Below are positions 24,173 through 64,000 of a DNA stretch of 64,000 nt, piece after piece. The notes beneath the pieces were generated by a model. It had not been told where the DNA came from. It did not search any database and saw only the letters and a list, made by a program, of their open reading frames with translations. The translations under genes were made by a program, and so were the position numbers. How positions within the stretch are numbered: position 1 is the stretch's first letter; the number at the start of each line of letters is the position of its first letter. The DNA comes from an uncultured delta proteobacterium (GTDB taxonomy: Bacteria; Desulfobacterota; Binatia; Binatales; Binataceae): NCBI GenBank assembly GCA_963842085.1, contig CAWJET010000001.1, positions 1,760,001-1,824,000 on the forward strand, read 5' to 3'.

Positions 24173-24181
24173 CTGCGACGC

Positions 24182-32055: not shown

Positions 32056-32083
32056 CGCTCCGACGGGTCGCCGCGCGTGCCGG

Positions 32084-45454: not shown

Positions 45455-46174
45455 GTGTCAATGACCGCTGCTCGTGCATCGCCCCGGAGACTAGAAAGCC
45501 TCAAGAACATCTCCTGGCTCACGGCGCGCCAGCTCGACAAGCTCTCCAACGCGCTAACGGTCAGCACCATCGAAAAGCGCGCGATCATTTTCGACGAGAA
45601 ACATTCACCCGACTCCGCATACATCTTGCTCGCGGGAGTGGCACGAATCACATGCCGCAATCGCAAGGGTCGGCGTACCCTGGTGATCATGGTCGCGCCC
45701 GGTATGGTTCCCGGCTTCCCGCCGGCGGTACCCGGCTTCAGTTACGATTTTCGCTGCGAAGCGGTTACCCCTTGTCGGATAGGGACGATCCAACTCGACT
45801 CGTTGATCGAAATAACACTGGGCATTGCTTCGACAAACTTCAAACGGATGGCGGCGAGCTACCTGGGCCGCTGGGATTTAGTTCAACTGCGCTGCGCAAA
45901 TTTCATGAGCTGTACTTTGGAAGAACGGTTGGCTCTAATTCTGCTGGAATTGAGTGAAACTTTTGGGGCTTCCGATGGAAAAGAAATACGGCTGACATTA
46001 CCGGTCCGGCACAGGGATTTGGCTGAACTGATCGGTGCCTCGCGCCCCCGAATTACCGAACAGTTGGCTTTGTTCGAGCAAAAGCATCTGATTTCGCGCA
46101 AAGGCCACCAGCTCGTTGTCAATCGCGATCGATTGGAAGGTCTTTTGGCGCAAACTCACATTTCTGAAAATTAG
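45455..46174 (+). CDS. Crp/Fnr family transcriptional regulator
   Basis: cNMP-binding-like N domain; LEERLALILLELSETFG; HTH RHRDLAELIGASRPRITEQL. Confidence 0.88.
   Translation: MSMTAARASPRRLESLKNISWLTARQLDKLSNALTVSTIEKRAIIFDEKHSPDSAYILLAGVARITCRNRKGRRTLVIMVAPGMVPGFPPAVPGFSYDFRCEAVTPCRIGTIQLDSLIEITLGIASTNFKRMAASYLGRWDLVQLRCANFMSCTLEERLALILLELSETFGASDGKEIRLTLPVRHRDLAELIGASRPRITEQLALFEQKHLISRKGHQLVVNRDRLEGLLAQTHISEN

Positions 46175-47505: not shown

Positions 47506-47509
<4 letters not shown>
46499..47509 (-). CDS. Dihydroorotate dehydrogenase-like FMN protein (PFOR-associated)
   Basis: [44 protein letters not shown]; start overlaps PFOR stop. Confidence 0.88.
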
Positions 47510-51111
<3,602 letters not shown>

Positions 51112-51264
51112 TTCTAAGCTCCCGCTGAACGCTGCCGCGCGACAGACGAGTGAGACGTGCCGGCGATCCTACCACAAAAAAATCAGCGCTGGTGACCCTT
51201 TCCCCCGCCCGTTCACGGATTACAGGCAGGAGGAATTTCAACTTGGGATTCAAGCGCCATTTTG

Positions 51265-51278
51265 TTACTTACAAGTAA
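51265..51278. promoter_or_regulatory. Short perfect palindrome in divergent promoter region
   Basis: TTACTT-AC-AAGTAA between PFOR and the 51337 ORF. Confidence 0.35.
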
Positions 51279-51336
51279 TCGGCAAGAGTCAAACCTGATC
51301 ACCATCCTCCTGCGTCTTCGAAAAAGGAGTTGATCC

Positions 51337-51804
51337 ATGGCTGACACGACCGGAATCGGCAAAGTGCTGCGCGACATAGCGCAAGCATATGTTGATGGCC
51401 TCTCGACAATAGGTGGCGCGATTGGTGATCTCGCCAAGCGCCGCATACCCGACGGCGAACGACAGATGGAGCACTGGATCGGAGTTGCCCGCGCCGCCAA
51501 GGACGGCTACGTAGCGGCAATCGATCAGAGCTTCGCCGTTTGGGAGCGGCGGATTCGCCGGACGATGGCTCCCCCGCAGTCATCCTCTTCCGGAAAGAAG
51601 TCGAACAGCGAGCAGAAAGCTCCAGCGAGTCAAATCGAAGCGTGGTTCGAGGCGTGGCGCGATGCGAACGAGTCTTTCATGCAGTCGATTCGAGATAGCG
51701 GACTCGGCGAGGAGGCTCTCAAACAAACCAGAGAATTGCGCAAGACGCTCGACGATGGCCTCAAGAATTTGCAGAAGCTGTGGCAGCCCTCGAGCAAGGG
51801 ATAG
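51337..51804 (+). CDS. Hypothetical amphipathic helical protein (phasin-like character)
   Basis: AAGGAG RBS; two helical Trp-containing halves separated by a Ser-rich linker; no TM or signal peptide. Confidence 0.6.
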   Translation: MADTTGIGKVLRDIAQAYVDGLSTIGGAIGDLAKRRIPDGERQMEHWIGVARAAKDGYVAAIDQSFAVWERRIRRTMAPPQSSSSGKKSNSEQKAPASQIEAWFEAWRDANESFMQSIRDSGLGEEALKQTRELRKTLDDGLKNLQKLWQPSSKG

Positions 51805-51865
51805 GCTCTGCCGGGCGTCAACCGCAACTCCCGGACTCCCCGATTTCCTGCAAGCGCGGCGCCGA

Positions 51866-53458
51866 TCAGTGGGCGTTCATCGCCGCGAGACCCGGATGCG
51901 GAGAATCATCGCGGATCGCGAGCGGCGTGCCCACCTGTTTCGGTCTCTTCGGACGCGGCGGAGCTGCCGCAGGCACGTTCTGGGCGACGGCGGCCCGCTT
52001 CAGTTCCTCGAAGACCTGCTCGACCAGCGACTTCATGCGATCCGGATCGGGCATCAGATTGGGTGCAGCCATCATCGTGAAATAGAGATTCTGGTTGTAG
52101 CTGATGATCGGCACGCCGAATCCGAGATTGGCGCCCAACGGAAGCAGGCCGAGGTAGTCGACCATCCGATGGCCCGCGAGATAGAGCGGCACCTGTGAGC
52201 CGGGAACGTTGGTGGCGATGAAACTTATCCCCATCGGCTGCGCCGCGCGTCTGACCCATGACGGGAAAATTCGCTGGAACGACACTGCGGTATCCATCGC
52301 CGTGGTTGCAAATCCGGCGAGCGTCGCGACCAATGCCGGCGGCGAGGCACTCAGGCCGATACTCATCAATCTTTCGAGCGCCTGCGGCTCCGCGGCTTCC
52401 TTGATCCTTTGGGTCTCAGCCGTGACGAGCTTCAGCCTGGCCACCGGATCCATTGGTTCAGCGGGCAATTCGGGGAACATCATCGAAACCCGGTTCCCCA
52501 ACGACCCGTTTTCGTCGTCGTGTCTCACACTGACCGGGCACCCGATTCGGAAGGGTGCGCCAGGCTGCACGCGATGATCGCGCAGGTAGCGGGCGGCGCC
52601 CTCGCTGAGCATCGTCAGCACGACATCGTTGATGGTGCCGCCAAAGGCGCTGCGAATCGCCCGGATATCCGCAAACGACGTGCGCAGCCAGGCCAGCGTC
52701 CGCTCCTGGGTGACCAGGCCGGCGCTCCAAGGTGTGGCCGCGATCGGTCGAATCATCTGCCGGGCCAACTTGGCGAGCGCGCCGGCATCCGCGCCAAGAT
52801 CCTTAACCAACGACCGAACGTCCGGGGCCTTTCGACTCAGGCGGCGCATCGAGTCGACCTGTTCCTGAGCGCGGTCGAGCGCGACGTCGACCAGCTGTCG
52901 CAGCGGTCCTGGCAGAGGTTTTGGAGACCATCGCTCGACATACGGTTCCGGCGCCGGGGGGTCCGGCCGGAAATCCATCACCACGTTCAGCAACTCCATT
53001 CCCGACACGCCATCGACGAGGCAATGGTGAATCGTCCACATCACGACCGAGCGATTGCCCTTGAAGCCGTTGAACAGGTTCACCTCCCACAGTGGGCGGT
53101 TGCGATCCAGCGGCTTGCGGAAGACCGCCATGGCCGTCTCGATCAGCTGCGCTTCGGAAGTATCCTCAGGCAACTGATGGAACTTGACGTGATTCTCGAT
53201 CGTGAAGTCGGGATCGTCCTCCAGCGTCGCGCGATCAAGATTGAAAGGCACCGGGATCAGGCGCTGACGGTAACGCGGAACCAGACGCAGTTTGCTCTCG
53301 AAATGACGGATCAACTCCGGATACGTGATCTCGTCATCGAAGAACGAGAGCGAGCCGACATGCAGTGGCCCGTTGCGCGACTCGCCGTAAATGAAGGTGG
53401 CATCCTGACCAGTGAGGCGATGGCTCAGCTTTTCAATTGCGATAGACTTTTCAGCCAT
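51866..53458 (-). CDS. Wax ester synthase/diacylglycerol acyltransferase (WS/DGAT)
   Basis: PLHVG, LDRNRPLWE, catalytic HHCLVDG (HHxxxDG), TINDVVL, TNVPG. Confidence 0.93.
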   Translation of the reverse strand: MAEKSIAIEKLSHRLTGQDATFIYGESRNGPLHVGSLSFFDDEITYPELIRHFESKLRLVPRYRQRLIPVPFNLDRATLEDDPDFTIENHVKFHQLPEDTSEAQLIETAMAVFRKPLDRNRPLWEVNLFNGFKGNRSVVMWTIHHCLVDGVSGMELLNVVMDFRPDPPAPEPYVERWSPKPLPGPLRQLVDVALDRAQEQVDSMRRLSRKAPDVRSLVKDLGADAGALAKLARQMIRPIAATPWSAGLVTQERTLAWLRTSFADIRAIRSAFGGTINDVVLTMLSEGAARYLRDHRVQPGAPFRIGCPVSVRHDDENGSLGNRVSMMFPELPAEPMDPVARLKLVTAETQRIKEAAEPQALERLMSIGLSASPPALVATLAGFATTAMDTAVSFQRIFPSWVRRAAQPMGISFIATNVPGSQVPLYLAGHRMVDYLGLLPLGANLGFGVPIISYNQNLYFTMMAAPNLMPDPDRMKSLVEQVFEELKRAAVAQNVPAAAPPRPKRPKQVGTPLAIRDDSPHPGLAAMNAH

Positions 53459-53853
53459 TGTTCTCAAGCCTCCAAGGTCGCCTCATTCACTGGTCGTTGC
53501 TGCCGATTCAGGCGCCTTCGATCATTCGTCATTTTTGTTCAACGATCAGCAAGCAAGGAGTACGCCACCCGACGTTCTCAGAACATGCTCAAGATAACAT
53601 GGGTAGAGATTGACCAGCCTGTCACCAAAAGGCACAGGTGGCTCCGTCGGACGCATCCGACAACAGTGAGTGGAGGCGCAGATCCTAGAATCGTCGTCCG
53701 ACTACGACATGCCAGCGAAAAACCGATTCAGCCGCCGGCCGAGGCTCTACAGCATAAGGGCGACGCTCGCTACGCTGAGTGCGGGCGCGATATGAACCGG
53801 CATGGGAAATGCTCTACTGTTCGCAGCGAAGAGCCGGTAACGGAGGAACTGCA

Positions 53854-54957
53854 ATGAAGTTCGGGATGCTGCATTTCTTTGAACATCCTGCAGGGGGCAA
53901 GAGTGAGCACCAAATAATCAGAGAGCAGCTCGATTGCATGCGCGCGGCCGAGGACTTGGGCTTCGACTCCATCTGGGCACCCGAACATCATTCCACCGAA
54001 TATGGCTTCAGCGCGTCGCCTATGTTGACGCTTGCGGCGATTGCATCCGTTACGAAACGGATCCGATTGGGGAGCGGTGTCATGGTGCTGCCGTTTAACG
54101 ACCCGATCCGGGTAGCCGAGGAAGGAGCGATGGTCGACCTGATGAGCGATGGCAGGCTCGACCTTGGGGTTGGGAGAGGCTTCCAGCCAATCGAGTACCA
54201 GGGGTTCACAGTCAATCAGGCCAGGTCACGCGAGATTTTTGACGAGGCTCTCGACGTAATTGTGCGCGCATGGACGGAGGAACCGATGAGCTTCAAAGGA
54301 GCTCACTTCGACATTCCCGAGCAGTCGGTGCGTCCCAAGCCGTTGCAGAAGCCTCACCCGCCCATATGGATCGCCGCCATCAGCGAGCCTTCCTTCGAAT
54401 TGGCCGGTCGACGGGGGTTCAATCTGCTCTGTTCGCTGGTCTACGGCTTTAAGTCTGATCGCCTTCACCAGCTTCTTGCGGACTACCGCGATGCTTTACG
54501 CGAAAAAGGATTTAACCCCGAAGAGCGCGAGCTCGGCGCCTTGTGCATGGTCTATTGCTCGGAGTCAACCGAACAGGCTCGGCTGGACTTCGGTGCACCG
54601 GTGTTATGGTACTACCGAACCATTGCGAACCTCGTAGCTCCTCCACTCGGCCAGCTACCTCCAGAAGGCTACGAAGCCTATCCGAACATTCGCAAGGCGG
54701 CGCAAACTGTGCAGTGGGACGAGCTTGTGAACAGTGGCACCCTGATATGCGGAAACCCGGCGTCGTGCATCCGGCAGATTGAGGAGCTGCAGACGAAATA
54801 CGGTTTCACTCAGATACTGTGCTGGACCAGGCTATCCGGTCTTGAGAACCGAAAGGTTCTGAGAAGCATGGAGCTTATGCAAACGCATGTGATTCCGCAC
54901 TTCAAACGTCAGGCTCAAGACCGAGGTACCCGGCACGGCTTGCGTTCCCAAGAGTGA
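53854..54957 (+). CDS. LLM-class flavin-dependent oxidoreductase
   Basis: GGAGG RBS; AEDLGFDSIWAPEHH, VAEEGAMVDLMSDGRLDLGVGRG, PKPLQKPHPP. Confidence 0.92.
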   Translation: MKFGMLHFFEHPAGGKSEHQIIREQLDCMRAAEDLGFDSIWAPEHHSTEYGFSASPMLTLAAIASVTKRIRLGSGVMVLPFNDPIRVAEEGAMVDLMSDGRLDLGVGRGFQPIEYQGFTVNQARSREIFDEALDVIVRAWTEEPMSFKGAHFDIPEQSVRPKPLQKPHPPIWIAAISEPSFELAGRRGFNLLCSLVYGFKSDRLHQLLADYRDALREKGFNPEERELGALCMVYCSESTEQARLDFGAPVLWYYRTIANLVAPPLGQLPPEGYEAYPNIRKAAQTVQWDELVNSGTLICGNPASCIRQIEELQTKYGFTQILCWTRLSGLENRKVLRSMELMQTHVIPHFKRQAQDRGTRHGLRSQE

Positions 54958-55043
54958 CGCAGCTCGCATGCAAGTATTACGGCGGGCTCGGCCGTTTCCA
55001 GTATACACGCGCTCCCGCCCTCGATTTCCCGGCGCTTGACCCG

Positions 55044-56729
55044 CTACTTACTTGCCGCGGGCACCGGCGTCCGCTGATGCGCGAGGAAGCGCGCGATGTC
55101 CTCGATCTCGGTGTGGGTCAGCTTGCCCTTCGGCTCCAGGAACGAAGGCATCTTGCTCTGCGAGAAGATCGCCTTGGGATCCTCGATGTAGCGGTGGATG
55201 AACGAAACCGACCGCACCAGCCCAATTCCGCTCAGGTCGGGTCCTTCGGCGCCGCCGTGGCCTGCCACGGTGTGGCACTTGCCGCAGTTTCGGTAGAACA
55301 GCCGGGGCGCCTTGTCGCTATAAGGCCCGCCACCCTGCAATTCCTCAATGTAGTCGAACAGGTCCGCGCCTTCCTCCGGCAACAATCCGGTCATTGCGGT
55401 GCGCATACCGGGCCGCACCACTTGGCCGGGCTGCTCGAGATGGGACAGTATCCAGACTTTGTCGTGCTTGAGCGGATCCAGCATCAGGTCGGGCCCGATG
55501 TTGGCCCCGCGGCCATTGACGCTGTGGCAGTATGCGCAATTCAGCGCGTGAAAGAGCCGGTGACCCTCGGCGACGGTCGGCAGTTCCGGCACATATGGGT
55601 TGAGTAGCGGCGACTGCGCGCCGATCACGGTCAACGCAATCACACCAACCAGCGCGGAGATACCGAAGGCGACGGCAATCGGACGGTCGAGCGGATGTTG
55701 GCGCATCCGCCGATCGAAGAAAGGCACTGCCAGGAGGATCAGCAATGCGATCCCCGGCAGCCCGACTGCCGCAACCGATTCCAGGCTTCCGGGAAAATAC
55801 TTGAGCGCCTGAAACAGGAACAGGAAGTACCAGTCGGGCCGCGGATTGAAGCTGATGCTGGCGGGGTCGGCCATCTCGCCGATCTCGACCGGATATCTCC
55901 AGGCCAGAAAGGCCACCACAAGAAACGCAATCACGACCGCGACTACGTCCTTGGCCAGGTAGAACGGATAGAACGATTCGCCTGCCTCTTTGCGGCGATG
56001 GTATTCCTCGTCCGCCATCCGCCGCTGGGTTTCGATGTCCAGGTTGTCGTATTCGGGATGATGCGAGGGCGGCGCCGAAATGCCCTGCCGCACGACCATG
56101 AAAAGATGCGCCGACACGAAAACGATAAGCGCCGCCGGCAGCATCAGCACGTGCATTGCGTAGAAGCGGGACAACGTCTGTGGGCCGACTTCGCTGCCGC
56201 CGCGGAAGAAGCGCACGATGTACTGTCCTATCATCGGGGTTGCGCCCGCGATGTTGGTGCCGACCACGGTCGCCCAGTACGCTTTCTGGTTCCAGGGCAG
56301 CAGGTATCCGGTGAACCCGAACAGCATCACGACCAGGAACAGGACGACGCCGGTAACCCAGGTTGTCTCGCGCGGATACTTGTAGCTGCCCGAGAGAAAC
56401 GTGGTCAGCATATGCGCGCCGATCACCACCACCATCGCGCTTGCGCCCCAAAAGTGAAGCCCGCGGATGAACCAGCCCAGGAAAGCGCGCGTCGAGATGT
56501 AACGCGCGGCGTCGTAGGCGTGATCGGGGCTGGCCACATAGTTCATCGCCAGCATCATCCCGGTCACTGCTTGCAGGATAAAAAAGAACAGCAGAATGCT
56601 GCCGAGCGTGTAGATCCACTCGACCAGCGGGCTGCTTTTCGGAATATTGCGATCGAACAGCGCCTGCCGGATGGTGCGCGTGCCGAGGCGCTCGTCAAAC
56701 CACTTGCTTAATCGGGGTCGGGACCACAT
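55044..56729 (-). CDS. Cytochrome b (b6-like) + subunit IV + two c-type heme domains in one polypeptide
   Basis: Heme-b His pairs RGLHFWGAS...GAHML and YAMHVL...SAHLF; TGYLLPWNQKAYWA; Qo motif PDWY; CAYCH and CGKCH. Confidence 0.92.
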   Translation of the reverse strand: MWSRPRLSKWFDERLGTRTIRQALFDRNIPKSSPLVEWIYTLGSILLFFFILQAVTGMMLAMNYVASPDHAYDAARYISTRAFLGWFIRGLHFWGASAMVVVIGAHMLTTFLSGSYKYPRETTWVTGVVLFLVVMLFGFTGYLLPWNQKAYWATVVGTNIAGATPMIGQYIVRFFRGGSEVGPQTLSRFYAMHVLMLPAALIVFVSAHLFMVVRQGISAPPSHHPEYDNLDIETQRRMADEEYHRRKEAGESFYPFYLAKDVVAVVIAFLVVAFLAWRYPVEIGEMADPASISFNPRPDWYFLFLFQALKYFPGSLESVAAVGLPGIALLILLAVPFFDRRMRQHPLDRPIAVAFGISALVGVIALTVIGAQSPLLNPYVPELPTVAEGHRLFHALNCAYCHSVNGRGANIGPDLMLDPLKHDKVWILSHLEQPGQVVRPGMRTAMTGLLPEEGADLFDYIEELQGGGPYSDKAPRLFYRNCGKCHTVAGHGGAEGPDLSGIGLVRSVSFIHRYIEDPKAIFSQSKMPSFLEPKGKLTHTEIEDIARFLAHQRTPVPAASK

Positions 56730-57228
56730 AAAGGAAGCCCTCGCGGACCTCAGTCGCGTAAATGTCCAGCGGACGCGGGGGAGGACCGCTGACCACCTTC
56801 CCGGTCATGCTGAACACGCCGGCATGGCACGGACAGAAGAACTGCTTGGCCTGCTCGACCCATCGGTAGGCGCATCCCAGGTGGGTGCAATGCGGATCGA
56901 ACGCGAGGATTTTGTCCGGCAGCCGCACCACCCACGCCGTCACCTGCGAATCGTCCGTCTCCCATCCCTCGACCACGCGCCGGGCGACCTCGAGCCGCTG
57001 GGGAAAGTTGAGCGGAAGGTCGTCGACCTTTCCTACCCGCACCCAATCTTTGGCTTTGGGCGCGCCAAACAGCGGACCGATGAGATAAGTCAGGATGGGC
57101 GCCGCGATGCCGACGGTGACCAATCCGACGCCGGACCAGAACACCCGCGCCAGAAACCGCCGCCGTGATCCGTTCCCTACCTCGCCGGCCGCAACCTCGG
57201 CGGTGTCTGCACCATCACCCGGGGACAT
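56695..57228 (-). CDS. Rieske 2Fe-2S subunit of a bc-type complex
   Basis: Tat motif SRRRFL plus TM helix; CTHLGC and CPCHAGVF boxes; GPPPRPL. Confidence 0.93.
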   Translation of the reverse strand: MSPGDGADTAEVAAGEVGNGSRRRFLARVFWSGVGLVTVGIAAPILTYLIGPLFGAPKAKDWVRVGKVDDLPLNFPQRLEVARRVVEGWETDDSQVTAWVVRLPDKILAFDPHCTHLGCAYRWVEQAKQFFCPCHAGVFSMTGKVVSGPPPRPLDIYATEVREGFLYVVPTPIKQVV

Positions 57229-57242
57229 GGCTTGCAGCGCTT

Positions 57243-57647
57243 TTACTTGTTGCAGAAGCTGCGGACGTAGGCGACCAGCCCGCGAATCTCGTCGTCGTCG
57301 TAGGCCTTGCCGAAATCTCCCATGTCCTTGCTTTTGCCCACTGACTTGCCGCCGTTCTTGATGACGTTAAAAAGATAATCGTCGGTGTATTTGGACATCG
57401 CCGCGCAATCCGTGTAGTTGGCGGGCTTGGCGCCCTTCAGCTCGGCGGCCTTGGGTCCGTCGCCTTTGCCCGACTGACCGTGGCAGTCGGCGCACGAATC
57501 CGCATAATTGCTGGCCGCGGCCTTCAGATCGACCGCGGCGGCGCGGGCTGTGCTCGAAATCAAGGCGAGCGCTGCAACCGCCGGTATGGCCGACGCGGTC
57601 CAAATCCACAGTCTCGATCGAATCCTGGTTCTCAAACTCTCAGACAT
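57243..57647 (-). CDS. Periplasmic monoheme class I cytochrome c
   Basis: GGAG RBS before ATG 57647; signal peptide; CADCH; probable distal Met in SKDMGDF. Confidence 0.9.
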   Translation of the reverse strand: MSESLRTRIRSRLWIWTASAIPAVAALALISSTARAAAVDLKAAASNYADSCADCHGQSGKGDGPKAAELKGAKPANYTDCAAMSKYTDDYLFNVIKNGGKSVGKSKDMGDFGKAYDDDEIRGLVAYVRSFCNK

Positions 57648-57770
57648 GGCTCCTCCGATTCCCTCTATTCCCTTCCTGACACCTGGTTCGCGGGCCGGGT
57701 CGCGGTGGAAGGTGGTCGTTCGTTGTTTGCCCCGGCCTCTCGCTGTTCGCAAATATATACCAACCTCCGA

Positions 57771-60023
57771 CTAAAATTTGTATTTCAGGGTTATGAATCC
57801 GACATTGGCGTCGTAGGGAGACCAGTCACTGTTGCCGAGGAATGTCGAGTTTGGGCTGGCATGCGGCATGTAGTTCTGGACTTGATCCGTCATGAAATTG
57901 TGTTCGCCGAAGTTGCTGAAGTAGTAGCCGATGTTGATCGCGAAGTTGTCGCGCAAATCGTACTCGTACTGAATCATCAAGTCGTGCAACCTGGTGCCGG
58001 TATCGGGATAGTCGATCGCCGGCGTTGACGACGCAGTATCTCCCGACTGGTGGATGCTGCTGTTGCCAACCGTGTACGTGTACTGGAGTTTCAGGTGCGA
58101 CGGCCTGAGCAAAAAACGATTCTGCGGTATCGCGATGTCCATGCCGACATCAATATTGTTGCCCTGATTGCGGCCCACGGCCGTCCAAACCGACGTTTTC
58201 CCCGGCGGTGGCGGCGGCGCAGGGATCGTGCTTTCGTCAAGTGACCGTGTGTTCCAATCGTACGCCTGCCATTCGTAGTCGCCAAAGACGTGCACGCCCG
58301 GCAGTGGATCCCAACTGGCCCCTACCGACGGTGAATAGCTTGAAGTGTGCTGCAGGCCGAAATCGGTGGACGGGTAGTTATAGTCGTCGTAGTTGAAGGC
58401 CGCGAACATCGTCAGGTGTTCGATCGGCTGCACGGAGGCGTAGAGCGAAGTCTGGTTCACATCGAGCGTGGCCTCGTCGAACCGCCGCAGGTCCTGCAGC
58501 TCCTCGATATCTCCCGGGGTCCCGCCGAGCACCTCGACCAGGCTGGCGCGGTTGTTGTTGTATCCCGGCGAGTCGCGATGCGCGTGCTGGTAATCGGCGC
58601 GGAAATTCAGCCACGGGTATGGGTTCCAATCGAGCGCTGGTCCATAGCTGGTTTGATCCTGCTGCAGTACCATCAGCCCGCCGTTGTGGTTGGTCTGCCA
58701 CTCGAAATTAAAGTGCGCGGCGAGAGTATCGGTCACGCGGTAGGTTGGCTCGATGCTGACGTCCTGCTCCGAGAAAGCAAAGGGATAAGCGGTGAAAGGA
58801 GTCTGCGCGCTCGCCACGTCATTCAGCGACTTGACGCCGGTGAAGGTGATCGCCGGCGTCAGGTTGTCGTAATCGAAATAGGAATAGGTTGCGGTTAGAT
58901 TCAGCCGTTCGATCGGATTGCTGTCGATCGTGAAGTTGGCGAAGAAAGGTTGCACGTCGCCGCCAAGGCTATTGGGCGCTCCGACCGAACTTAATGACTG
59001 CTGCAGCTTGCTGTTGCTGGTAAGCGGGATGAAGGGCGAGTTCTGCAGCCAGAATCCGTACTCCAGGCTGCCCATTACGTGCGTGTTGTATGGGAGCTGA
59101 CCTGCTCCGTTCACGATGAAGTTGTGCGCCTGGTTGTTCGGGTACATCGCCGCTCGTCCCTGGCAGGGGCCGGTAAGCGACGTGGAACTGAAGCTGATGG
59201 AATCAACGCAGTTACTGCCAACTCCGCTGGTATTGAGGGGATTGTCCCAGGTCAGGGTGGAGTAGTCGTCAACGAAGAAGGATCCCTGGTACTGGAATCC
59301 GAGCATCCATCCGTTTTTCGCGTATTCTGCGCCCGCGCCGAAGTTATAGGTGTAGTACTGCGTTGGCACCCAGAGTTCATTCACTTTGAAAGTACCCGGG
59401 CTGCTGCCAAACATAAAGCTGCCGCCGAAAGGCTGTTGGCCGGTGGGGTTCTGATAATCCAGGTTCGCACTGAAGCTCAGCGACGGCGTCGGCGTATAGC
59501 GCAGGTTGATGTCCGCGATACCTTCGAGCAGGCTCATGTCGAACGGCTGGCCGTTCGCTTCCAGCCAGGAATGGAGAGCGGCGCCGGTACCAGTGGGCTT
59601 CGAGGATAGAGTGAAGCTGCCGCCGTTTTCGTCGTACGGCGTGCTCGCGACGTGGTCGCTGAAGAAGTGCGGAATCTCGATGAATTTTACCTGAACATCG
59701 AGCAGACCGTACTCGCCGAAGCGCAGCGAGTACATCTGGTTTTTTTGCCCGACGTTGACGCCATCGAACTGGACGTAGTAGTTCTCGGCCTTGTCGCCCA
59801 GGATCAACTGGAGTTTCGGGGCGATGAACTGCTGCGCAAGATCGCGGTACTCCTGATACTTCGCGGCGACGTCGTCATAAGGAACCGGCTGGGGAATGGC
59901 GCCCGCCTCGACCGAACCCTGCGCTGTGTATTGCCCGAGATCGACCTGTGCCAGTGCCGGCGAAAGCATTGACAGCACCAGCGCCACCGTTCCGTACCCG
60001 GCGAATAACCGCTTCAGGTTCAT
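57771..60023 (-). CDS. MtrB/PioB/MtoB-family outer-membrane porin
   Basis: 750 aa, signal peptide, AKYQEYRD, LTWDNP, P.N.AH motif, beta-strand pattern, C-terminal YKF; directly after a decaheme cytochrome. Confidence 0.9.
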   Translation of the reverse strand: MNLKRLFAGYGTVALVLSMLSPALAQVDLGQYTAQGSVEAGAIPQPVPYDDVAAKYQEYRDLAQQFIAPKLQLILGDKAENYYVQFDGVNVGQKNQMYSLRFGEYGLLDVQVKFIEIPHFFSDHVASTPYDENGGSFTLSSKPTGTGAALHSWLEANGQPFDMSLLEGIADINLRYTPTPSLSFSANLDYQNPTGQQPFGGSFMFGSSPGTFKVNELWVPTQYYTYNFGAGAEYAKNGWMLGFQYQGSFFVDDYSTLTWDNPLNTSGVGSNCVDSISFSSTSLTGPCQGRAAMYPNNQAHNFIVNGAGQLPYNTHVMGSLEYGFWLQNSPFIPLTSNSKLQQSLSSVGAPNSLGGDVQPFFANFTIDSNPIERLNLTATYSYFDYDNLTPAITFTGVKSLNDVASAQTPFTAYPFAFSEQDVSIEPTYRVTDTLAAHFNFEWQTNHNGGLMVLQQDQTSYGPALDWNPYPWLNFRADYQHAHRDSPGYNNNRASLVEVLGGTPGDIEELQDLRRFDEATLDVNQTSLYASVQPIEHLTMFAAFNYDDYNYPSTDFGLQHTSSYSPSVGASWDPLPGVHVFGDYEWQAYDWNTRSLDESTIPAPPPPPGKTSVWTAVGRNQGNNIDVGMDIAIPQNRFLLRPSHLKLQYTYTVGNSSIHQSGDTASSTPAIDYPDTGTRLHDLMIQYEYDLRDNFAINIGYYFSNFGEHNFMTDQVQNYMPHASPNSTFLGNSDWSPYDANVGFITLKYKF

Positions 60024-60095
60024 TACCTTCCCTCCCGAGAGGCCGCAAAACCGCGGTGCGGCCCAGCGATGCCGTGCCTTCGTCTGCTTCCCGCA

Positions 60096-61133
60096 TCAGC
60101 GCGTGAAATATCTCCCGCCCGGCGAGTTGGAGCCGTGTATCTGCGAATGGCAATTGGTGCATTGCTGGTTGATAACGAAAATTTGTCCCCTCGCATGGGG
60201 CGAACTTGGATGATGGGTGCCGATGTGGCAGCGCTGGCAGAGCAGCGGCATGTTGATTACCAGCATGTGCTGGTTGACGCTGCCGTGCGGCAGATGGCAG
60301 TTCAGGCAGTTCATCGCCACCGGCGCGTGCATCCACAGGAACGGCCCGCGCTTTTCGGCATGACAGCGGTAGCAGACCTCATTGACCATCGCCGCCCGCA
60401 ATTGATGCTGGTAGGGTCCGCCGTGCGGATTGTGGCAGTCGGTGCAGGTCATCGACCCTTCGCGCAACGGCATGTGCGAGGGCAAATTGATTTCCATCTT
60501 CTTGTCCATATGGCAGCGGAGGCAGACCTGGGTTTCGGGGCGCGTCACGATGAATGGATTGATGAATTCCGTGCCCAGCGGTGACTTCTTGAGTTGCGGC
60601 TCCGGCAGCGCACTCGCCGTCACCGGACACATCACGGCGTGGCAATCGACGCATCGGATGCCGCGGGTGGCGTGTGGACTGACGTCCCAGAACGCACGCT
60701 CGCCGTTCTGATGGCATTCGAGGCAGCGTTCGTTCTCAATCTTGATGTCAGTGAAGGAGGTCTCTTGAAAATTCAGAAATCCCGGCGCCGGCTTGTGCGG
60801 ATGGCGTATGTGCTCGCGGCCGGGACCATGACAGGACTGGCAGGCGAGGCCCTCCTGCTCGTCGCGCGGCCGGCCCAGCATGAGATGGCCCATCATTGTC
60901 TGCCGGAAGGACTTGACCTGTACATCATGGCAACTGGTGCAGGTCGAATTATCGACGTAGCCGCGCGGCAGGGTGGCCCCCGATGCCGTCGCTTGGGAAG
61001 GCAGGGTGCCGTCCGCGCCGATTGCCGGGGTGGATGAACTCAGGGAGGCGATTCCAAACGCGAGCAACGCCACGAAAACACCCGCCCAAAATTTTCGCGG
61101 ACCGCGTTCCCCCTCCATCCTGGTGTCCTCCAT
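60096..61133 (-). CDS. DmsE/MtrA/PioA/MtoA-family decaheme c-type cytochrome
   Basis: Ten CxxCH motifs counted; CQSCHGPG, SHMPLREG, CHAEKRGPFLWMHAPV, C-terminal CTNCHSQIHGSNSP. Confidence 0.95.
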   Translation of the reverse strand: MEDTRMEGERGPRKFWAGVFVALLAFGIASLSSSTPAIGADGTLPSQATASGATLPRGYVDNSTCTSCHDVQVKSFRQTMMGHLMLGRPRDEQEGLACQSCHGPGREHIRHPHKPAPGFLNFQETSFTDIKIENERCLECHQNGERAFWDVSPHATRGIRCVDCHAVMCPVTASALPEPQLKKSPLGTEFINPFIVTRPETQVCLRCHMDKKMEINLPSHMPLREGSMTCTDCHNPHGGPYQHQLRAAMVNEVCYRCHAEKRGPFLWMHAPVAMNCLNCHLPHGSVNQHMLVINMPLLCQRCHIGTHHPSSPHARGQIFVINQQCTNCHSQIHGSNSPGGRYFTR

Positions 61134-61448
61134 TTCGGGCGCCAGCCGTTGGCGCCCGTTCGGCAGCTTACCGCCGGCGCTTACACGTGCTCCTCACAGC
61201 GACGAATGTAGTCGAAACTGTCGAGCGGCAGGCGTAGCTCCCGGTCCGCCTTCGCCTCGATGGTCCCTAGGCTCGATCGCATACCTTCCCCCGCGTTCTC
61301 GAACTCGCCCCTCACTGGTCCGAGAATCCGACTGTGCCCCGATCGGAACTGAATCCAAGTAGCCCAGACGGTCTGCCTTTGCAAGGTTCCAAGTGGGTTT
61401 GGTAGTGTCCCCGGACAAATGCATGCGCGCAAGACAAAGAGGGCGGTG

Positions 61449-62198
61449 ATGGGCAAAGTGGCCGGCAAGGTCGGGACGTGGATTTGCGTTATCCTGGTTG
61501 CGGCTATTTCCGCTTCCTGGGCCGCGGAACTCCCGAAGGCCGACAGTGTCGGCGGCACGATCGAAGGATTCGTCCGAATCGAGGGCGAGGTGCCGAAACT
61601 GGCGCCGCTCGACGTCAACAAGGACACGGACATCTGCAAAGACGTGCCCAACGAAACGCTGGTCGTTGGCCCGGGCAAGGGCGTGCAATACACGGTGGTC
61701 ACTATCGAGGGGTTGGTGAAGGCGCCGGAACCAGGAGGCGGCGATCAGGTCTCCACCGTAAACCGGCTCGACAACAAGGGCTGCCGGTTCGTGCCACATG
61801 TGCTCGCGATGGAGGTGAATCAATTTCTCGAGATCGACAATAGCGATCCGATTCTGCACGCCACGCACGCCCTGTTCCATGAGGGGCAGCCGCAATTCAA
61901 CGTGGGTCTATATCCCGGAAGAATCGTTCGCAAACCGATTGTAACGCCAGGCCCGGTGAAGATGATTTGCGAAGTGCATCCGTGGATGAGTGCCTACGTC
62001 TACGTCACGCAGAACCCGTACCACGCTGTTACCGACATCTATGGAAGGTATGAGATTCGCGGCGTACCGCCAGGCACCTACCGACTCAAGGCCTGGCATG
62101 AACGTCTGGGTATGCAGGAGCAAAAGGTCGTAGTCACAGAGGGCAAGACGACCGAGGCGACCTTCACCTTCAAGCCCGACGTGAGTGCGAGCCGATGA
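61449..62198 (+). CDS. Secreted cupredoxin-like / carboxypeptidase-regulatory-like domain protein
   Basis: Signal peptide; GCRFVPHV, NSDPILHATH, CEVHPWM, PPGTYRLKAWHE; start 61449 or 61419. Confidence 0.8.
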   Translation: MGKVAGKVGTWICVILVAAISASWAAELPKADSVGGTIEGFVRIEGEVPKLAPLDVNKDTDICKDVPNETLVVGPGKGVQYTVVTIEGLVKAPEPGGGDQVSTVNRLDNKGCRFVPHVLAMEVNQFLEIDNSDPILHATHALFHEGQPQFNVGLYPGRIVRKPIVTPGPVKMICEVHPWMSAYVYVTQNPYHAVTDIYGRYEIRGVPPGTYRLKAWHERLGMQEQKVVVTEGKTTEATFTFKPDVSASR

Positions 62199-62818
62199 GA
62201 ATCATTTCCGCGCTGTTGGCTGCCGCTCTGTTGATTGGCGGCAACGTCGCCGCACTGGCTGCGGGTCCGGATTCAAATTCGGGAGCCGTTGTCGGTACCG
62301 TCACTGTTAACGGACAGCCGACCTCGGATGTCGTCGTTTCCGTCGAGGGGTTGCCGCCGCCTGGCAATGAAAAAAGCCCGAACCCGGCGGCACCTCCACC
62401 GCAAGCGACGATGGCTCAACAGGATCTGAAATTCGTTCCTCACGTTCTGCCTATCCTGGTCGGAACGACGGTAGCATTTCCAAACAACGATCAGGTTTGG
62501 CACAACGTCTACTCGGACTCCAAGGTCAAGAAGTTCGACTTGGGCCTGTACGGTCCGGGCAAGAGCAAGTCAGTAATCTTCGACACGCCGGGTGTCGTGC
62601 GAATCCGCTGCAACGTTCATCCGGCCATGGAGGCTTACATCGTTGTCGAGGCTCAACCGAATTTCGCTTCTCCCGATGCGCAAGGCAACTACAAATTCGT
62701 GGGGTTACCGCTAGGCACCTACCACCTTCAGGTCTGGCATCCGTCGCTTGGCGTCAAGACGGAGTCATTCACGCTGGAGCGGGCTGGCGAGGTGCAGCAG
62801 ATAGACGTCAATTTCTAA
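62195..62818 (+). CDS. Second secreted cupredoxin-like / carboxypeptidase-regulatory-like protein
   Basis: ATGA overlap; FVPHVLPILVGTTVAFPNND..WHNVYS, FDLGLY, CNVHPAM. Confidence 0.82.
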   Translation: MRIISALLAAALLIGGNVAALAAGPDSNSGAVVGTVTVNGQPTSDVVVSVEGLPPPGNEKSPNPAAPPPQATMAQQDLKFVPHVLPILVGTTVAFPNNDQVWHNVYSDSKVKKFDLGLYGPGKSKSVIFDTPGVVRIRCNVHPAMEAYIVVEAQPNFASPDAQGNYKFVGLPLGTYHLQVWHPSLGVKTESFTLERAGEVQQIDVNF

Positions 62819-62907
62819 TCGGGAAGAGCGCGGAGTTGGGCAAGGCTGCAGCGCTTTGAATCGTTCGGCGCGGTAGCTATGGCTTCTCAAGACTTGATCG
62901 GCGCGGA

Positions 62908-64000
62908 TCAATCGGTGGTTGTAGGCATAGCTGTCGCGGGATAATAGATTCCTTCCGGCTGCCGGACCCACCAGGCGCCGGTGGCTTTCTTTTCTTCCGG
63001 GCTGGAATAGCGATAGTCGTAAAGCAGGGCCCGCACGTAGAGAGGCGCCTTACCAGGAAACGGATTGCTCCCGAGCAGGGCGGTCACCTCCGGCGAATTT
63101 TCCAGCAACCGCTGCAAGAACAGCGAAAACCAGGGACTTTGCGACGCCGGCCCGAGAGCGGCAAACCACATCTGCCAGTCAAGGCGCGGCTGGTGCGGAA
63201 TGTTCCACTGCGGTCGGCGCATGACGTCGCCCGGTTTGTACTTAAATCCGTACTCGCGCCAGTGAACGCCATCATCCGATCCCTCGACGATGATTTCCGG
63301 CAAAGTGGTCGTCATCACCGCAAACAAACCATAAGTATTGACGATACGCAGTGGCGCAATTTCAGCGTTGACCCACGTACCCAGGGCGGAGATTCGGCCG
63401 TTGAGCACCGCATGGAGCTGCACAAGACCGGTGAACACGATCAACATCGCGAACGCGCCGACGGCAAAAGAAACGATCTCCCCCGGCTTGATATCGCGGA
63501 CCTGGCGTTGCACAAACCGGGTCGCGCGCTCAGGAAGAACCTTGCGCAGCGCGGCATCGTCAAACAGCGCCAGGCACAAGGCCATCGTCAGGAGATTGAA
63601 GAAAGCATAGTTGCCGGTGAGAAGGATCACCACCTGCAATAACAAAATGCCGAATGCTGCGACGAACCTCAGCCGCCGCGGGAAGAAAATCAAAAACGGC
63701 AGCCCCAGTTCAATGACCAGGGTCGCCGCCGTTGACGCTGTGAGTACCGCCTGCGGTAGGTGATGCGCGTACCAGGCCAGCGGTGTCGGCAGCGGCTCGG
63801 TCTGAAAATAGTAGGAGAGCGCGGAAAGGTTGGCCCATGTAGGGTCGCCGCTCAGGAGCTTTACCGCGCCCGAAAGAAACATGAAGCGGAATAGAAGCCA
63901 GCGCAGCAGCCATATACCCGGCTTTGTCGCCATGCTCAGAACAAGCGTAAGGAAGCCGGATTCGAGCAAAAGCAGATCCCACTGAAAGCCCATGAACTCC
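62908..64000 (-). CDS. Lipase maturation factor (LMF) family membrane protein, 5' end outside the window
   Basis: FQWDLLLLESGF, RWLLFRFMFLSG, TQ/EPLPTP, YGLFAVMT, PHQPRLDWQMWFAAL. Confidence 0.92.
   Translation of the reverse strand, partial: EFMGFQWDLLLLESGFLTLVLSMATKPGIWLLRWLLFRFMFLSGAVKLLSGDPTWANLSALSYYFQTEPLPTPLAWYAHHLPQAVLTASTAATLVIELGLPFLIFFPRRLRFVAAFGILLLQVVILLTGNYAFFNLLTMALCLALFDDAALRKVLPERATRFVQRQVRDIKPGEIVSFAVGAFAMLIVFTGLVQLHAVLNGRISALGTWVNAEIAPLRIVNTYGLFAVMTTTLPEIIVEGSDDGVHWREYGFKYKPGDVMRRPQWNIPHQPRLDWQMWFAALGPASQSPWFSLFLQRLLENSPEVTALLGSNPFPGKAPLYVRALLYDYRYSSPEEKKATGAWWVRQPEGIYYPATAMPTTTD

Follow-up and report, generated by a model that had tools for sequence, protein, structure and literature searches.

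A decahaem/porin conduit encoded with a Rieske/cytochrome b complex in a five-gene operon of a Candidatus Binataceae bacterium

Background

The pairing of an outer-membrane electron conduit with a Rieske/cytochrome b complex is not new. In the genome survey of Castelle et al. 2013 (Nat Commun 4:2120), the MtrAB homologues of Zixibacteria RBG-1 cluster with PetAB (cytochrome b and Rieske protein), and the cluster was read as mixotrophic Fe(II) oxidation; in the accounts drawn on here, the pairing has never been tested experimentally. A related arrangement is the extHIJKLMNOPQS cluster of Geobacter sulfurreducens, which Jahan et al. 2018 describe as encoding a porin-like protein, multihaem cytochromes, the Rieske protein ExtO, the cytochrome b ExtP and the membrane protein ExtQ. 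In the MtoAB–MtoD–CymA/MtoC system of Sideroxydans lithotrophicus and in PioABC of Rhodopseudomonas palustris, as these are described, an MtrC-less decahaem/barrel pair is followed by a small periplasmic carrier, and any bc1 complex is encoded elsewhere. The petI operon of Acidithiobacillus ferrooxidans (cycA-sdrA-petABC) is described as encoding an extra, dedicated bc complex together with a cytochrome c of its own; this complex supports uphill electron flow from Fe(II) together with the cupredoxin rusticyanin and an outer-membrane cytochrome.

The locus considered here lies in a 64-kb stretch of DNA, called the window below, from a Candidatus Binataceae soil bacterium; the Binataceae are little studied. 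A preliminary description had allowed that bc-type genes near mtrAB homologues might already have been noted in genome surveys, and the studies of Castelle et al. 2013 and, for the related ext cluster, Jahan et al. 2018 confirm that they have. The closest counterpart, RBG-1, shares with the window an MtrA decahaem and MtrB, monohaem cytochromes and PetAB, and no extracellular cytochrome is described for it. Compared by description, it differs in phylum and in having several multihaem cytochromes within the cluster, nearer to the long form found in relative L007 (below), while the window has five genes only, a fused cytochrome b/subunit IV/dihaem c and a chimeric cytochrome c. The window resembles the Mto and Pio systems in its MtrC-less decahaem/barrel and small carrier, and differs in that its operon encodes the quinone link, a Rieske/cytochrome b complex, with neither a CymA/MtoC tetrahaem nor a HiPIP among the scanned ORFs of at least 100 aa; the missing NapC/NirT-type tetrahaem places the locus outside the Mto system. 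With the ext cluster it shares an outer-membrane porin encoded alongside Rieske and cytochrome b proteins. ExtI, however, a porin of 45 kDa, is described as having no analogue among known conduits, whereas the window porin is an MtrB/PioB barrel, and the window has no rhodanese, selenoprotein cytochrome or split b/IV subunits; the ExtP equivalog model (NF040969) scores 213.3 bits against the fusion, under its cut-off of 290, which rules out membership of the Geobacter ExtOPQ module. The petI operon is similar in its dedicated bc complex, but its outer-membrane part is the fused porin-cytochrome Cyc2, encoded in the separate rus operon, and its bc1 complex contains a cytochrome c1, as in the proteobacterial type, and is no b6-type fusion.

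Results

Five tightly packed genes occupy positions 55044–61133 on the minus strand of the 64-kb window, and two further genes diverge from them across an intergenic region:

60096..61133, minus strand: decahaem cytochrome c of the MtrA/MtoA/PioA/DmsE family (345 aa, 10 CxxCH, TIGR03508)
57771..60023, minus strand: MtrB/PioB-type outer-membrane beta-barrel (750 aa, PF11854)
57243..57752, minus strand: class I monohaem cytochrome c, predicted to be secreted (PF13442/PF00034, one CxxCH)
56695..57228, minus strand: Rieske [2Fe-2S] subunit with a predicted Tat signal, b6f-like (PF00355, motifs)
55044..56729, minus strand: cytochrome b6 + subunit IV + dihaem cytochrome c fusion, 561 aa (PF00033, PF00032, two PF00034)
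61134..61418, no strand: intergenic region of 285 bp from which the decahaem gene and the cupredoxin pair diverge, presumed to act as promoter region
61419..62198, plus strand: protein predicted to be secreted or anchored, with a cupredoxin-like segment and CarboxypepD_reg as its C-terminal domain (PF13620, motif)
62195..62818, plus strand: predicted type 1 copper (amicyanin/plastocyanin-like) domain with a CarboxypepD_reg domain (PF00127)

The pairing of an outer-membrane conduit with a quinone-linked Rieske/cytochrome b complex in one five-gene operon is real. All five co-oriented genes of the preliminary description were recovered on the minus strand, and domain models, CxxCH counts and motifs agree with the identities it had given them. 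Its spacing, with gaps of at most 124 bp and one overlapping pair, was likewise reproduced: by gene coordinates the decahaem and porin genes are 72 bp apart, the porin and cytochrome c genes 18 bp (123 bp if the cytochrome c begins at the likelier ATG at 57647, giving 134 aa) and the cytochrome c and Rieske genes 14 bp, and the Rieske and cytochrome b genes overlap by 35 bp at the cytochrome b start. This operon-like packing suggests that the five genes are co-transcribed. A terminator scan placed no terminator-like site in any of the operon junctions, the total of 11 such sites being within the shuffle expectation of 8.1 ± 3.3. Neither a promoter-like nor a sigma-54-like site was found in 61134–61418; the sole promoter-like site in 54500–63000 is on the plus strand at 57480–57508. 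DNA similarity between the window and L007 stops at window position 61205. A pyruvate:ferredoxin oxidoreductase is encoded 4 kb from the operon.

The decahaem cytochrome has exactly 10 CxxCH motifs in its 345 aa and an N-terminal signal anchor. Its score against the DmsE-family model TIGR03508 is 228.8 bits (cut-off 192.2), and it aligns with PDB 6r2q chain A at E 1.8e-53 (query 49–343 to chain 54–331). The 750-aa protein, which had been put forward as an MtrB-type barrel, matches PF11854 (MtrB_PioB) with 260.6 bits against a cut-off of 23, over model positions 7–635 of 635, so that both the DmsE-family and the MtrB/PioB models are passed. On the narrower TIGR03509 it reaches 209.8 bits, under the cut-off of 240.05, indicating a divergent member of the MtrB/PioB family. 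The barrel assignment is upheld by a porin-family profile (alignment A1), which matches 6r2q_B at E 5e-39 (80-745 / 93-693), and by an AlphaFold2 model of moderate confidence (mean pLDDT 64.9; strands high, loops low), for which the top Foldseek match is again 6r2q_B (E 3.3e-24, TM 0.63/0.72), the runner-up being at E 1.3e-07 and TM ~0.3. Because the family-level matches run over whole proteins, chance matches are not an issue. The two proteins thus resemble chains A and B of Shewanella MtrCAB (6R2Q; model TM 0.72), although the structurally aligned porins share just 17% identity and the window has no MtrC/OmcA and no CymA; the lack of a surface decahaem MtrC/OmcA in the 64 kb excludes the locus from the MtrCAB extracellular respiration systems. 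Of the 55 related loci, 52 have a decahaem match upstream of their porin, and two of the three exceptions begin inside the porin gene.

That no MtrC or DmsAB partner is encoded in the window, as had been claimed, was supported by a scan of CxxCH frames and of 57 ORFs of 100 aa or longer. Beyond the operon, CxxCH motifs occur in just three frames of the 64-kb window, none with more than two: 13383–15812 (two motifs), 31847–32545 (one) and 45608–45877 (one). The OmcA/MtrC model TIGR03507 gave only an 18.4-bit partial match, on the decahaem itself. The 57 scanned ORFs include no molybdopterin enzyme and no HiPIP, the window holds no NapC/NirT-type tetrahaem of the CymA/MtoC type, and there is no molybdoenzyme or other terminal reductase in or beside the operon.

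The Rieske protein (40.6 bits to PF00355) carries the motif RRRFL at residue 22, a twin-arginine signal from which Tat export is predicted, and the boxes CTHLGC at 114 and CPCHAG at 132. Its best NCBIfam matches are PetC-type and fall under their cut-offs; in an alignment with b6f PetC, CPCHGSQY there corresponds to CPCHAGVF here, and the Ser/Tyr pair is absent. The cytochrome b fusion matches PF00033 with 172.3 bits, PF00032 with 33.9 bits and PF00034 in two stretches. With its histidine pairs H92/H106 (13 residues between) and H193/H208 (14 between), the Qo-site motif PDWY at 298 and the Rieske boxes, the pair falls within the bc1/b6f superfamily. A PDWY motif combined with a Rieske protein without the Ser/Tyr pair is a mark of low-potential menaquinol enzymes, and its presence suggests an enzyme of this kind. 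In cytochrome b6f and Bacillus-type bc complexes, haem ci is bound covalently by a conserved N-terminal cysteine of cytochrome b6. The fusion lacks this cysteine, as its only four (398–401, 482–485) all sit in the CxxCH motifs at 398 and 482, and its score against the cytochrome b6 model NF002990, 229.7 bits, is under the cut-off of 325; b6f membership is thereby ruled out, although the 14-residue histidine spacing and the best PDB matches (cytochrome b6, E 2.5e-49) are b6-like. The fusion architecture is common: 4931 of 8000 scored proteins match at E <= 0.001, and cytochrome b and c domains occur together in 117 of the top 120 matches listed.

The product of 61419–62198 contains the C-x2-H-x2-M motif CEVHPWM at residue 184, with VPH upstream of it; it matches PF13620 and no cupredoxin model. 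For 62195–62818, PF00127 gives 28.1 bits (cut-off 21.2), blue copper domains in the PDB match at E 4.7e-05 and weaker, and a CNVHPAM loop at 139 completes the type 1 ligand pattern, from which copper binding is predicted. In 13 of the 22 clade C loci, the decahaem gene is preceded on its own strand by homologues of both genes, those of 61419–62198 being 50–57% identical, and this linkage suggests that the copper-protein genes belong to the conduit system.

In 12 of the 55 related species-representative loci with which the locus was compared, the conduit is followed by a Rieske/cytochrome b pair, always on the same strand; three more loci end in a Rieske match. Fusions like that of the window are found in L002, L003, L005, L007 and L048, an unfused cytochrome b type (35% identical) in L026, L027, L031, L037, L038 and L046, and a third type, with a flavoprotein subunit, in L013, so that there are at least three Rieske/cytochrome b lineages, spread over three porin clades and over records that carry different phylum labels. 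The link therefore recurs but is not universal. The five genes in their exact order and without interruption were seen in none of the 55 loci. Where at least 9.5 kb of downstream sequence is available, cytochrome b is present in 11 of 35 loci and absent from 24. The multihaem–Rieske–cytochrome b order of clade C resembles ExtN–ExtO–ExtP as described for Geobacter, and all 16 clade B loci have the Mto-like order decahaem–porin–cytochrome c–NapC/NirT, the NapC/NirT-type cytochrome being present in 30 of the 55 overall. Downstream neighbourhoods are highly variable in the window's own clade.

In four close relatives, about 6.3 kb of additional sequence separates the porin from the bc genes and encodes two cytochromes c, a NapC/NirT-type cytochrome, a multihaem + b561 module and an SPFH protein; in this long form a same-strand block of 11 genes, nearly all cytochromes, ends with the bc genes. 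Three further close relatives (L009, L012 and L015) have the long block with no Rieske/cytochrome b match after it, which, with the 24 of 35 loci without cytochrome b, indicates that the complex is dispensable for the conduit.

The five-gene form is derived, a shortened version of the longer cluster. Its cytochrome c is a chimera of a cytcA-type signal peptide (porin-adjacent) and a cytc3-type mature domain (bc-adjacent), cytcA and cytc3 being the first and last cytochromes c of the long-form cluster. The signal part is identical to cytcA at 30–32 of 38 positions, compared to 17 of 40 for cytc3, and the mature part to cytc3 at 76–79 of 96, compared to 55–60 of 102 for cytcA; the DNA alignment of the window with L007 skips from L007 position 12794 to 18643. 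The chimeric protein is retained in 13 further 90%-identity protein clusters (74–99% identity), so that an assembly artefact and a recent accident can both be dismissed. It also matches 4xxl_A, which we take to be MtoD, weakly (E 0.005, 20.4 bits). Recombination between the two paralogous cytochrome c genes would have produced the five-gene operon, with loss of the NapC/NirT-type and multihaem/b561 quinone modules, and would have left the Rieske/cytochrome b complex as the sole quinone link in the locus.

Discussion

Our tentative proposal is that this recombined remnant of a longer cluster encodes a dedicated electron path between the cell surface and the quinone pool, running inward. The decahaem would sit inside the MtrB-type barrel and span the outer membrane, electron transport across the periplasm would fall to the secreted monohaem cytochrome c, possibly with both blue copper proteins, and the b6-type Rieske/cytochrome b complex would link to the quinone pool, probably of menaquinone, with the fused dihaem c domain as docking site; the docking partners are presumed ones. 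Direction cannot be read from sequence, and uptake from Fe(II) or reduced humics is a possibility that we slightly favour over export coupled to the Q cycle. Fe(II) or reduced humic matter would give up electrons at the MtrC-less conduit, in line with the proposals made for MtoAB, PioAB and the RBG-1 cluster. These electrons would enter the cytochrome c/cupredoxin pool and pass to a terminal oxidase or, alternatively, would be driven by the proton-motive force backwards across the Rieske/cytochrome b complex to the quinone pool.

Uptake is favoured because no MtrC-like protein is encoded in the window, a class I cytochrome c occupies the MtoD position, and two type 1 copper proteins (one by motif only) adjoin the conduit in a conserved linkage; in addition, Castelle et al. 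2013 read an analogous cluster likewise, and the Binatales are reported mainly from acidic wetland and forest soils (Murphy et al. 2021). The same report describes the Binatota as methylotrophs and alkane degraders, a lifestyle with little need for reverse electron flow, which counts against uptake, as would a low-potential menaquinol enzyme, for which uphill flow from Fe(II) is costlier. According to Baker 2022, MtoA and PioA form no function-specific clades, which makes the absence of MtrC weak evidence of direction.

The same machine run outward is the strongest alternative, though we consider it somewhat unlikely. The Rieske/cytochrome b complex would oxidise quinol with Q-cycle proton translocation and pass electrons through the fused dihaem c, the monohaem cytochrome c and the decahaem/porin to high-potential extracellular acceptors such as oxidised humics, Mn(IV) or, at acid pH, Fe(III) complexes. 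Rieske/cytochrome b complexes usually work as quinol oxidases, and the Qo and Rieske features here are of the low-potential type. The NapC/NirT-type and multihaem + b561 modules in the relatives' clusters presumably resemble Geobacter ImcH and CbcL, quinol oxidases tuned to acceptor potential, and such alternative quinol oxidases suit export better. The haem potentials measured in known MtrA-type decahaems, however, are lower than that of electrons leaving a bc complex, and the step from cytochrome c to decahaem would be uphill unless these haems are unusual. In the metal reducer Geobacter, the ext cluster as described does couple a Rieske/cytochrome b pair with a porin, the Fe(III)/Fe(II) potentials of acidic wetland are by our estimate high enough for electrons from a bc complex, a heterotroph would benefit from an alternative terminal acceptor, and a pyruvate:ferredoxin oxidoreductase is encoded near the operon. 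Against this, a surface MtrC/OmcA-type cytochrome is absent from the window, blue copper proteins with class I cytochromes c typify aerobic and Fe(II)-oxidising chains, and the literature searched yielded no experimental case of bc-fed extracellular respiration.

It is improbable that the adjacency is functionally meaningless, the cytochrome c–Rieske–cytochrome b set being a general complex III that came to lie beside the conduit after the deletion and shares with it at most a periplasmic cytochrome c pool. The common fusion architecture, the loci whose conduit has no bc complex near it and the variable downstream neighbourhoods of the window's clade would all fit such an accident. They are countered by the finding that at least three unrelated Rieske/cytochrome b lineages follow these conduits in the same orientation, in loci that span three porin clades and differently labelled phyla, by the position of the long-form bc genes at the close of a block almost entirely of cytochromes, and by the retention of the deletion product in 13 other clusters. 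Murphy et al. 2021 also report alternative complex III (ACIII) in all Binatota genomes, which argues against the bc genes as the only quinol:cytochrome c oxidoreductase. In L006, no cytochrome b lies within 10 kb of the porin, and a more distant copy of the fusion (P0157, 59% identical) appears to be encoded elsewhere in the chromosome, which supports an accessory role. These observations, with the ACIII of the host taken from the phylum-wide report, argue that the complex is accessory and not the sole complex III.

Least likely is that the conduit serves, in place of iron, some other redox substrate outside the cell or in the periplasm, either DMSO-like (compare DmsEF) or Mn(II) for oxidation (compare the porin-cytochromes of Candidatus Manganitrophus), for although DmsE is the best curated model for the decahaem, a distant homologue (22% identity) occurs in a Candidatus Manganitrophus genome (L055) and molybdopterin enzymes stand beside some distant clusters (NapAB-like in L031; Mo/FeS/NrfD modules in L029 and L039), no such enzyme or terminal reductase accompanies the window operon, and the L055 match is remote, its long tree branch unreliable.

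If such a dedicated link from quinone pool to cell surface exists, the cell could trade electrons with iron or humic matter outside.

A compact operon joining an MtrAB-type conduit to a Rieske/cytochrome b complex

The five co-oriented genes reported in the preliminary description at window 55044-61133 are borne out, all on the minus strand and separated by gaps of 72, 18 (or 123) and 14 bp, with the Rieske and cytochrome b genes overlapping by 35 bp.

60096-61133, minus strand: decahaem cytochrome, 345 residues with exactly ten CxxCH motifs
57771-60023, minus strand: porin, 750 residues
57243-57752 (probable start ATG at 57647), minus strand: monohaem cytochrome c, a secreted class I cytochrome c
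56695-57228, minus strand: Rieske protein with an RRRFL twin-arginine motif and CTHLGC/CPCH boxes
55044-56729, minus strand: cytochrome b fusion, consisting of cytochrome b6, subunit IV and two class I cytochrome c domains

The decahaem cytochrome scored 228.8 bits on the DmsE-family model TIGR03508 (cut-off 192.2), confirming the initial assignment, and a PDB sequence search matched it along its whole length to MtrA, chain A of the solved Shewanella Mtr complex 6R2Q (E 1.8e-53). The 750-residue protein proved to be an MtrB-type barrel, as had been proposed. It matches Pfam MtrB_PioB across the entire model (260.6 bits), with a score of 209.8 bits on the narrower TIGR03509, under its cut-off of 240.05. 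As a single sequence it gave no match at E <= 0.01 in a phmmer search of PDB sequences, and a profile of 21 porin homologues (alignment A1) retrieved MtrB (6r2q_B) at E 5e-39. An AlphaFold2 model built from A1 had a mean pLDDT of 64.9, with confident strands and poor loops; its best Foldseek match was again 6r2q_B (E 3.3e-24, TM 0.63/0.72), followed in the list by TonB-dependent receptors seventeen orders of magnitude behind. The PDB name file is misleading for this entry, calling the MtrA chain "Cystathionine beta-synthase" and MtrB "Uncharacterized protein", while the fold library names it "Structure of the Mtr complex".

The identities first given to the Rieske protein and the cytochrome b fusion also hold, the former by its motifs and the latter by the His pairs H92/H106 (13 residues between) and H193/H208 (14 between), a PDWY Qo motif and two CxxCH motifs. 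The closest solved structures to the fusion are cytochromes b6 (E 2.5e-49), and since it has no further cysteine there is no site for a covalent haem ci.

A promoter and terminator scan found nothing exceeding shuffle expectation: no terminator-like site fell in any operon junction, the site total matched that of shuffled sequence, and the 3'-terminal part of the Rieske gene contains one weak stem, 5 bp ahead of the cytochrome b start. The sigma-54 promoter pattern was uninformative; it matched 56 times in the window, where 65.7 matches were expected, and not at all in 61134-61418.

Copper proteins and other surroundings

Two proteins, one a putative and the other a clear copper protein, are encoded beside the operon, both with a C-terminal CarboxypepD_reg domain.

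61419-62198, divergent from the decahaem gene: putative copper protein
62195-62818, divergent from the decahaem gene: type 1 copper protein

A PF00127 match, matches to PDB blue copper domains and a CNVHPAM loop clearly mark the second as a type 1 copper protein. The C-x2-H-x2-M loop is shared by the first, but its putative copper part matches no model, and a protein atlas search with it returned solely unnamed CarboxypepD_reg clusters. DNA similarity to close relatives stops at window 61205 (position 8816 of the related locus L007), which leaves 72 bp before the decahaem gene begins. Beyond this point these relatives have genes for a histidine kinase and a sigma-54 response regulator, where the window has the inverted copper-protein pair, a pair otherwise seen just in a distant clade of conduit loci (clade C).

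No other multihaem cytochrome, molybdoenzyme partner or second bc complex was found within the 64-kb window, in line with the earlier statement that it holds no MtrC or DmsAB partner. The remainder encodes ordinary metabolism, and the named homologues of the porin, the cytochrome c and the cytochrome b fusion belong to Candidatus Binataceae or Candidatus Binatus. The minus-strand stretch immediately following the operon (47506-53467) encodes a wax ester/triacylglycerol synthase and a full-length pyruvate:ferredoxin oxidoreductase (1790 bits), and a Crp/Fnr-type regulator is encoded at 45455-46174. Far from the operon are a small cupredoxin (31699-32055, plus strand; PF13473, 85.7 bits) and a cobalamin riboswitch (24168-24328, plus strand; 96.8 bits) directly 5' of a TonB-dependent receptor (24460-26508, plus strand), with CobT-, CobS- and CobU-like salvage genes at 21703-24110. 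A 784-residue protein (13380-15734, minus strand) has two CxxCH motifs and, as its only family signal, a sub-threshold cytochrome c match of 17.8 bits; its neighbours (10493-11884, 16099-16680 and 16665-17486) likewise lack a Pfam match.

Linkage to Rieske/cytochrome b complexes is recurrent but facultative

Fifty-five related loci from species-representative genomes were drawn by the porin alignment A1 and searched by tblastn with the window proteins and the proteins of four loci; seven loci were annotated with Pfam. A porin tree of the window and 50 loci (quick IQ-TREE run, LG+G4), leaving out the short or broken porins of L035, L044, L052, L053 and L054, resolved three clades. The window falls in clade A (15 loci, Binataceae, porins 59-85% identical to the window's). 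All 16 loci of clade B (43-52%) have the Mto-like order decahaem, porin, cytochrome c, NapC/NirT, and the 22 loci of clade C (30-37%) come from records labelled Binatia, Acidiferrales, Verrucomicrobiia and Syntrophobacteraceae. Same-strand homologues of the two copper/CarboxypepD_reg proteins precede the cluster in 13 of the 22 clade C loci and in 0 of the 31 in clades A and B; several of the clade C clusters then have multihaem cytochromes, a Rieske protein and a cytochrome b downstream.

In 12 of the 55 loci (5/15 in A, 1/16 in B, 6/22 in C) the porin is followed, on its own strand, by a cytochrome b core; of the 35 loci with at least 9.5 kb of downstream sequence, 11 have one, and three further clade C loci stop within a Rieske match at the edge of the flank. 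The complexes are of three kinds. A window-like fusion occurs in L002, L003, L005 and L007 (80-82% identity) and in L048 (60%). An unfused 366-residue b/IV protein, ~35% identical to the window's and preceded by a multihaem cytochrome, is found in L026, L027, L031, L037, L038 and L046. At L013 (15869-19364), a Rieske/cytochrome b pair, its cytochrome b assigned by tblastn only, follows a 638-residue GltD-like NAD(P)/FAD/Fe-S subunit, a combination that we take to be the one known from anammox Rieske/cytochrome b complexes. That different Rieske/cytochrome b lineages have repeatedly been recruited to one position argues more strongly than anything else for a functional link with the conduit. 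On the opposing side, no cytochrome b lies downstream in 24 of the 35 loci with full flanks, and the region is highly variable even within clade A, where L002, L003, L005 and L007 carry a long block together with the bc genes, L009, L012 and L015 the block without them, and L004, L006 and L008 unrelated genes. Linkage of the conduit to bc genes is thus recurrent but facultative. The original interpretation is partly supported by this survey: the association recurs, and the contiguous five-gene order of the window is found in 0 of the 55 loci. Mere adjacency of the bc genes and the conduit is considered unlikely.

Several loci had features of separate interest. The L004 record carries the label Bryobacterales (Acidobacteriota), but in the decahaem and porin genes its DNA is 87% identical to the window's, and the homology stops exactly at the porin stop codon. 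Either the contig was mis-binned or the genes were transferred recently. Several conduit clusters contain, in addition to other quinone modules, a Qrc-/ACIII-like module of multihaem c, molybdopterin-type, 4Fe-4S and NrfD membrane subunits (L039 12792-17891, L029 14840-19836); L015 has only its multihaem c, 4Fe-4S and NrfD genes (14991-17528) and L009 only the molybdopterin gene (9435-11891). In the Verrucomicrobiia record L031, a NapA-like molybdopterin enzyme and a NapB-like cytochrome (3804-6739) immediately precede the copper proteins and conduit, which hints at a link between conduit and nitrate reduction.

The compact operon carries a chimeric cytochrome c

In L002, L003, L005 and L007 the genes run decahaem, porin, a porin-adjacent cytochrome c (cytcA), cytcB, a NapC/NirT-type cytochrome, a small ORF, a 439-residue multihaem cytochrome, a b561-type membrane cytochrome, an SPFH protein, a bc-adjacent cytochrome c (cytc3), Rieske and cytochrome b fusion. 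The clade B locus L048 is built on the same logic, which indicates that this long form is old. Window DNA aligns with L007 in two blocks, one that begins ahead of the decahaem gene and extends through cytcA (L007 8816-12794, 84.5% identity) and one that begins inside cytc3 and extends through the cytochrome b gene (L007 18643-21265, 82-84%), and the two alignments overlap within the cytochrome c gene of the window, where sliding identity places the switch near 57590-57540. The signal peptide of the window protein is identical to cytcA of L007 and L005 at 30-32 of 38 positions, compared with 17 of 40 for cytc3, while the mature domain is identical to cytc3 at 76-79 of 96, compared with 55-60 of 102 for cytcA, and has indels in common with cytc3. 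The simplest reading of these alignments is that ~6.3 kb were deleted by recombination between the two paralogous genes, the polarity of the change being deduced.

The same chimera occurs in 13 other 90%-identity protein clusters (P0241-P0255, among 22 examined) that are 74-99% identical to the window protein, indicating that the event is old and has been retained; an assembly collapse is ruled out by the recurrence of the junction. Plain cytc3 (P0258, P0259, P0266, P0272) and plain cytcA (P0304, P0318, P0329) were also present, and P0264 and P0277 combine a cytc3-type mature part with a signal peptide of neither type. The chimera illustrates the modularity of these clusters.

A possible conduit-linked subfamily of the cytochrome b fusion

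Two lines of evidence bear indirectly on whether the bc genes are the housekeeping complex III. All Binatota genomes are reported to encode an alternative complex III (Murphy et al. 2021). The second line is the lengths of the contigs that carry the fusions. In four cases fusions 77-88% identical to the window's have a longest contig equal in length to that of a porin cluster (71,684, 150,287, 13,713 and 15,966 bp), and such matches among porin, cytochrome c and cytochrome b clusters suggest further linked loci. The fusion of cluster P0157 is only 59% identical; its longest contig (3,659,033 bp) has the length of the one carrying L006, where no cytochrome b was found within 10 kb of the conduit. 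These length matches suggest that the fusion family splits into a conduit-linked subfamily and an unlinked one.

Proposed electron path and its direction

Established knowledge of these families outlines a chain in which electrons would pass between the quinone pool, the Rieske/cytochrome b complex, the fused dihaem c, the soluble cytochrome c, the decahaem cytochrome in its barrel and the outside, each step being reversible in principle; the copper proteins may serve as carriers alongside the soluble cytochrome c. Of the contacts along this chain, that of decahaem and porin is a textbook pairing, and the others are much less certain. Uptake, in which Fe(II) or reduced humics would be oxidised at the surface and electrons passed inward, is the direction towards which we tentatively lean, at a little short of an even chance. 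MtrC is absent, a cytochrome c occupies the MtoD position, the linked candidate carriers are blue copper proteins, and the analogous cluster of Zixibacteria RBG-1 was interpreted likewise (Castelle et al. 2013).

Export, with quinol oxidised by the bc complex and electrons leaving through the conduit, is a more doubtful possibility. Quinol oxidation is the normal direction of a Rieske/cytochrome b enzyme, and the PDWY motif and a Rieske box reading CPCHAGVF, where b6f has CPCHGSQY, are presumably marks of low-potential, menaquinol-type complexes. Relatives carry modules that we take to resemble ImcH and CbcL, and Fe(III) in acid wetlands is, by estimate, a high-potential acceptor. The hosts are heterotrophs of acid wetlands (Murphy et al. 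2021). Reverse electron flow would be of little use to them. A conduit serving some other substrate altogether is improbable.

One possible form of export, which we put forward speculatively, would make the Rieske/cytochrome b complex the sole quinol oxidase feeding an MtrAB-type conduit, in a Q-cycle-coupled respiration of high-potential extracellular acceptors in acid peat such as Fe(III)-organic complexes, Mn(IV) and oxidised humics. The long clusters of relatives would then supply three alternative quinol oxidases matched to acceptor potential. If true, coupling of a proton-motive Q cycle to extracellular respiration would be an energy-conserving form of the process, which to our knowledge has been demonstrated for no organism.

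Relation to known systems and significance

Clusters that combine an MtrAB-type conduit and a Rieske/cytochrome b complex have been published before: the RBG-1 cluster, analogous to that of the window, pairs MtrAB-type with PetAB genes and was proposed to serve mixotrophic Fe(II) oxidation (Castelle et al. 2013), and the Geobacter extHIJKLMNOPQS cluster encodes a porin-like ExtI, a Rieske ExtO and a cytochrome b ExtP (Jahan et al. 2018). In the Pio, Cyc2 and Leptospirillum models of iron-oxidation reviews the bc1 complexes are encoded separately, whereas the window has its bc complex inside the operon. A survey of mtrCAB neighbourhoods found MtoA/PioA without function-specific clades, and the words Rieske, bc1 and cytochrome b do not occur in its main text (Baker et al. 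2022). The terms "multiheme", "decaheme" and "cytochrome bc" are absent from the Binatota genome paper (Murphy et al. 2021), and, subscription journals aside, literature on Binatota/Binatia with MtrB, extracellular electron transfer or FeGenie yielded no description of a conduit. Novel features are the lineage of the host, the minimal five-gene form in which the bc complex is the only quinone link, its origin via a cytochrome c chimera, the linked copper proteins and the count of a recurrent, facultative linkage.

The compact operon reduces the system to a conduit, a single carrier and a single quinone enzyme. It makes a natural minimal construct, well suited to asking whether a Rieske/cytochrome b complex drives, or is driven by, an MtrAB-type conduit, a question that dates from 2013. 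Acidic wetland and forest soils hold abundant Binatota, which have been described to date as methylotrophs and alkane degraders (Murphy et al. 2021); access through a conduit to iron or humic matter outside the cell would bring them into the iron and carbon cycling of peat.
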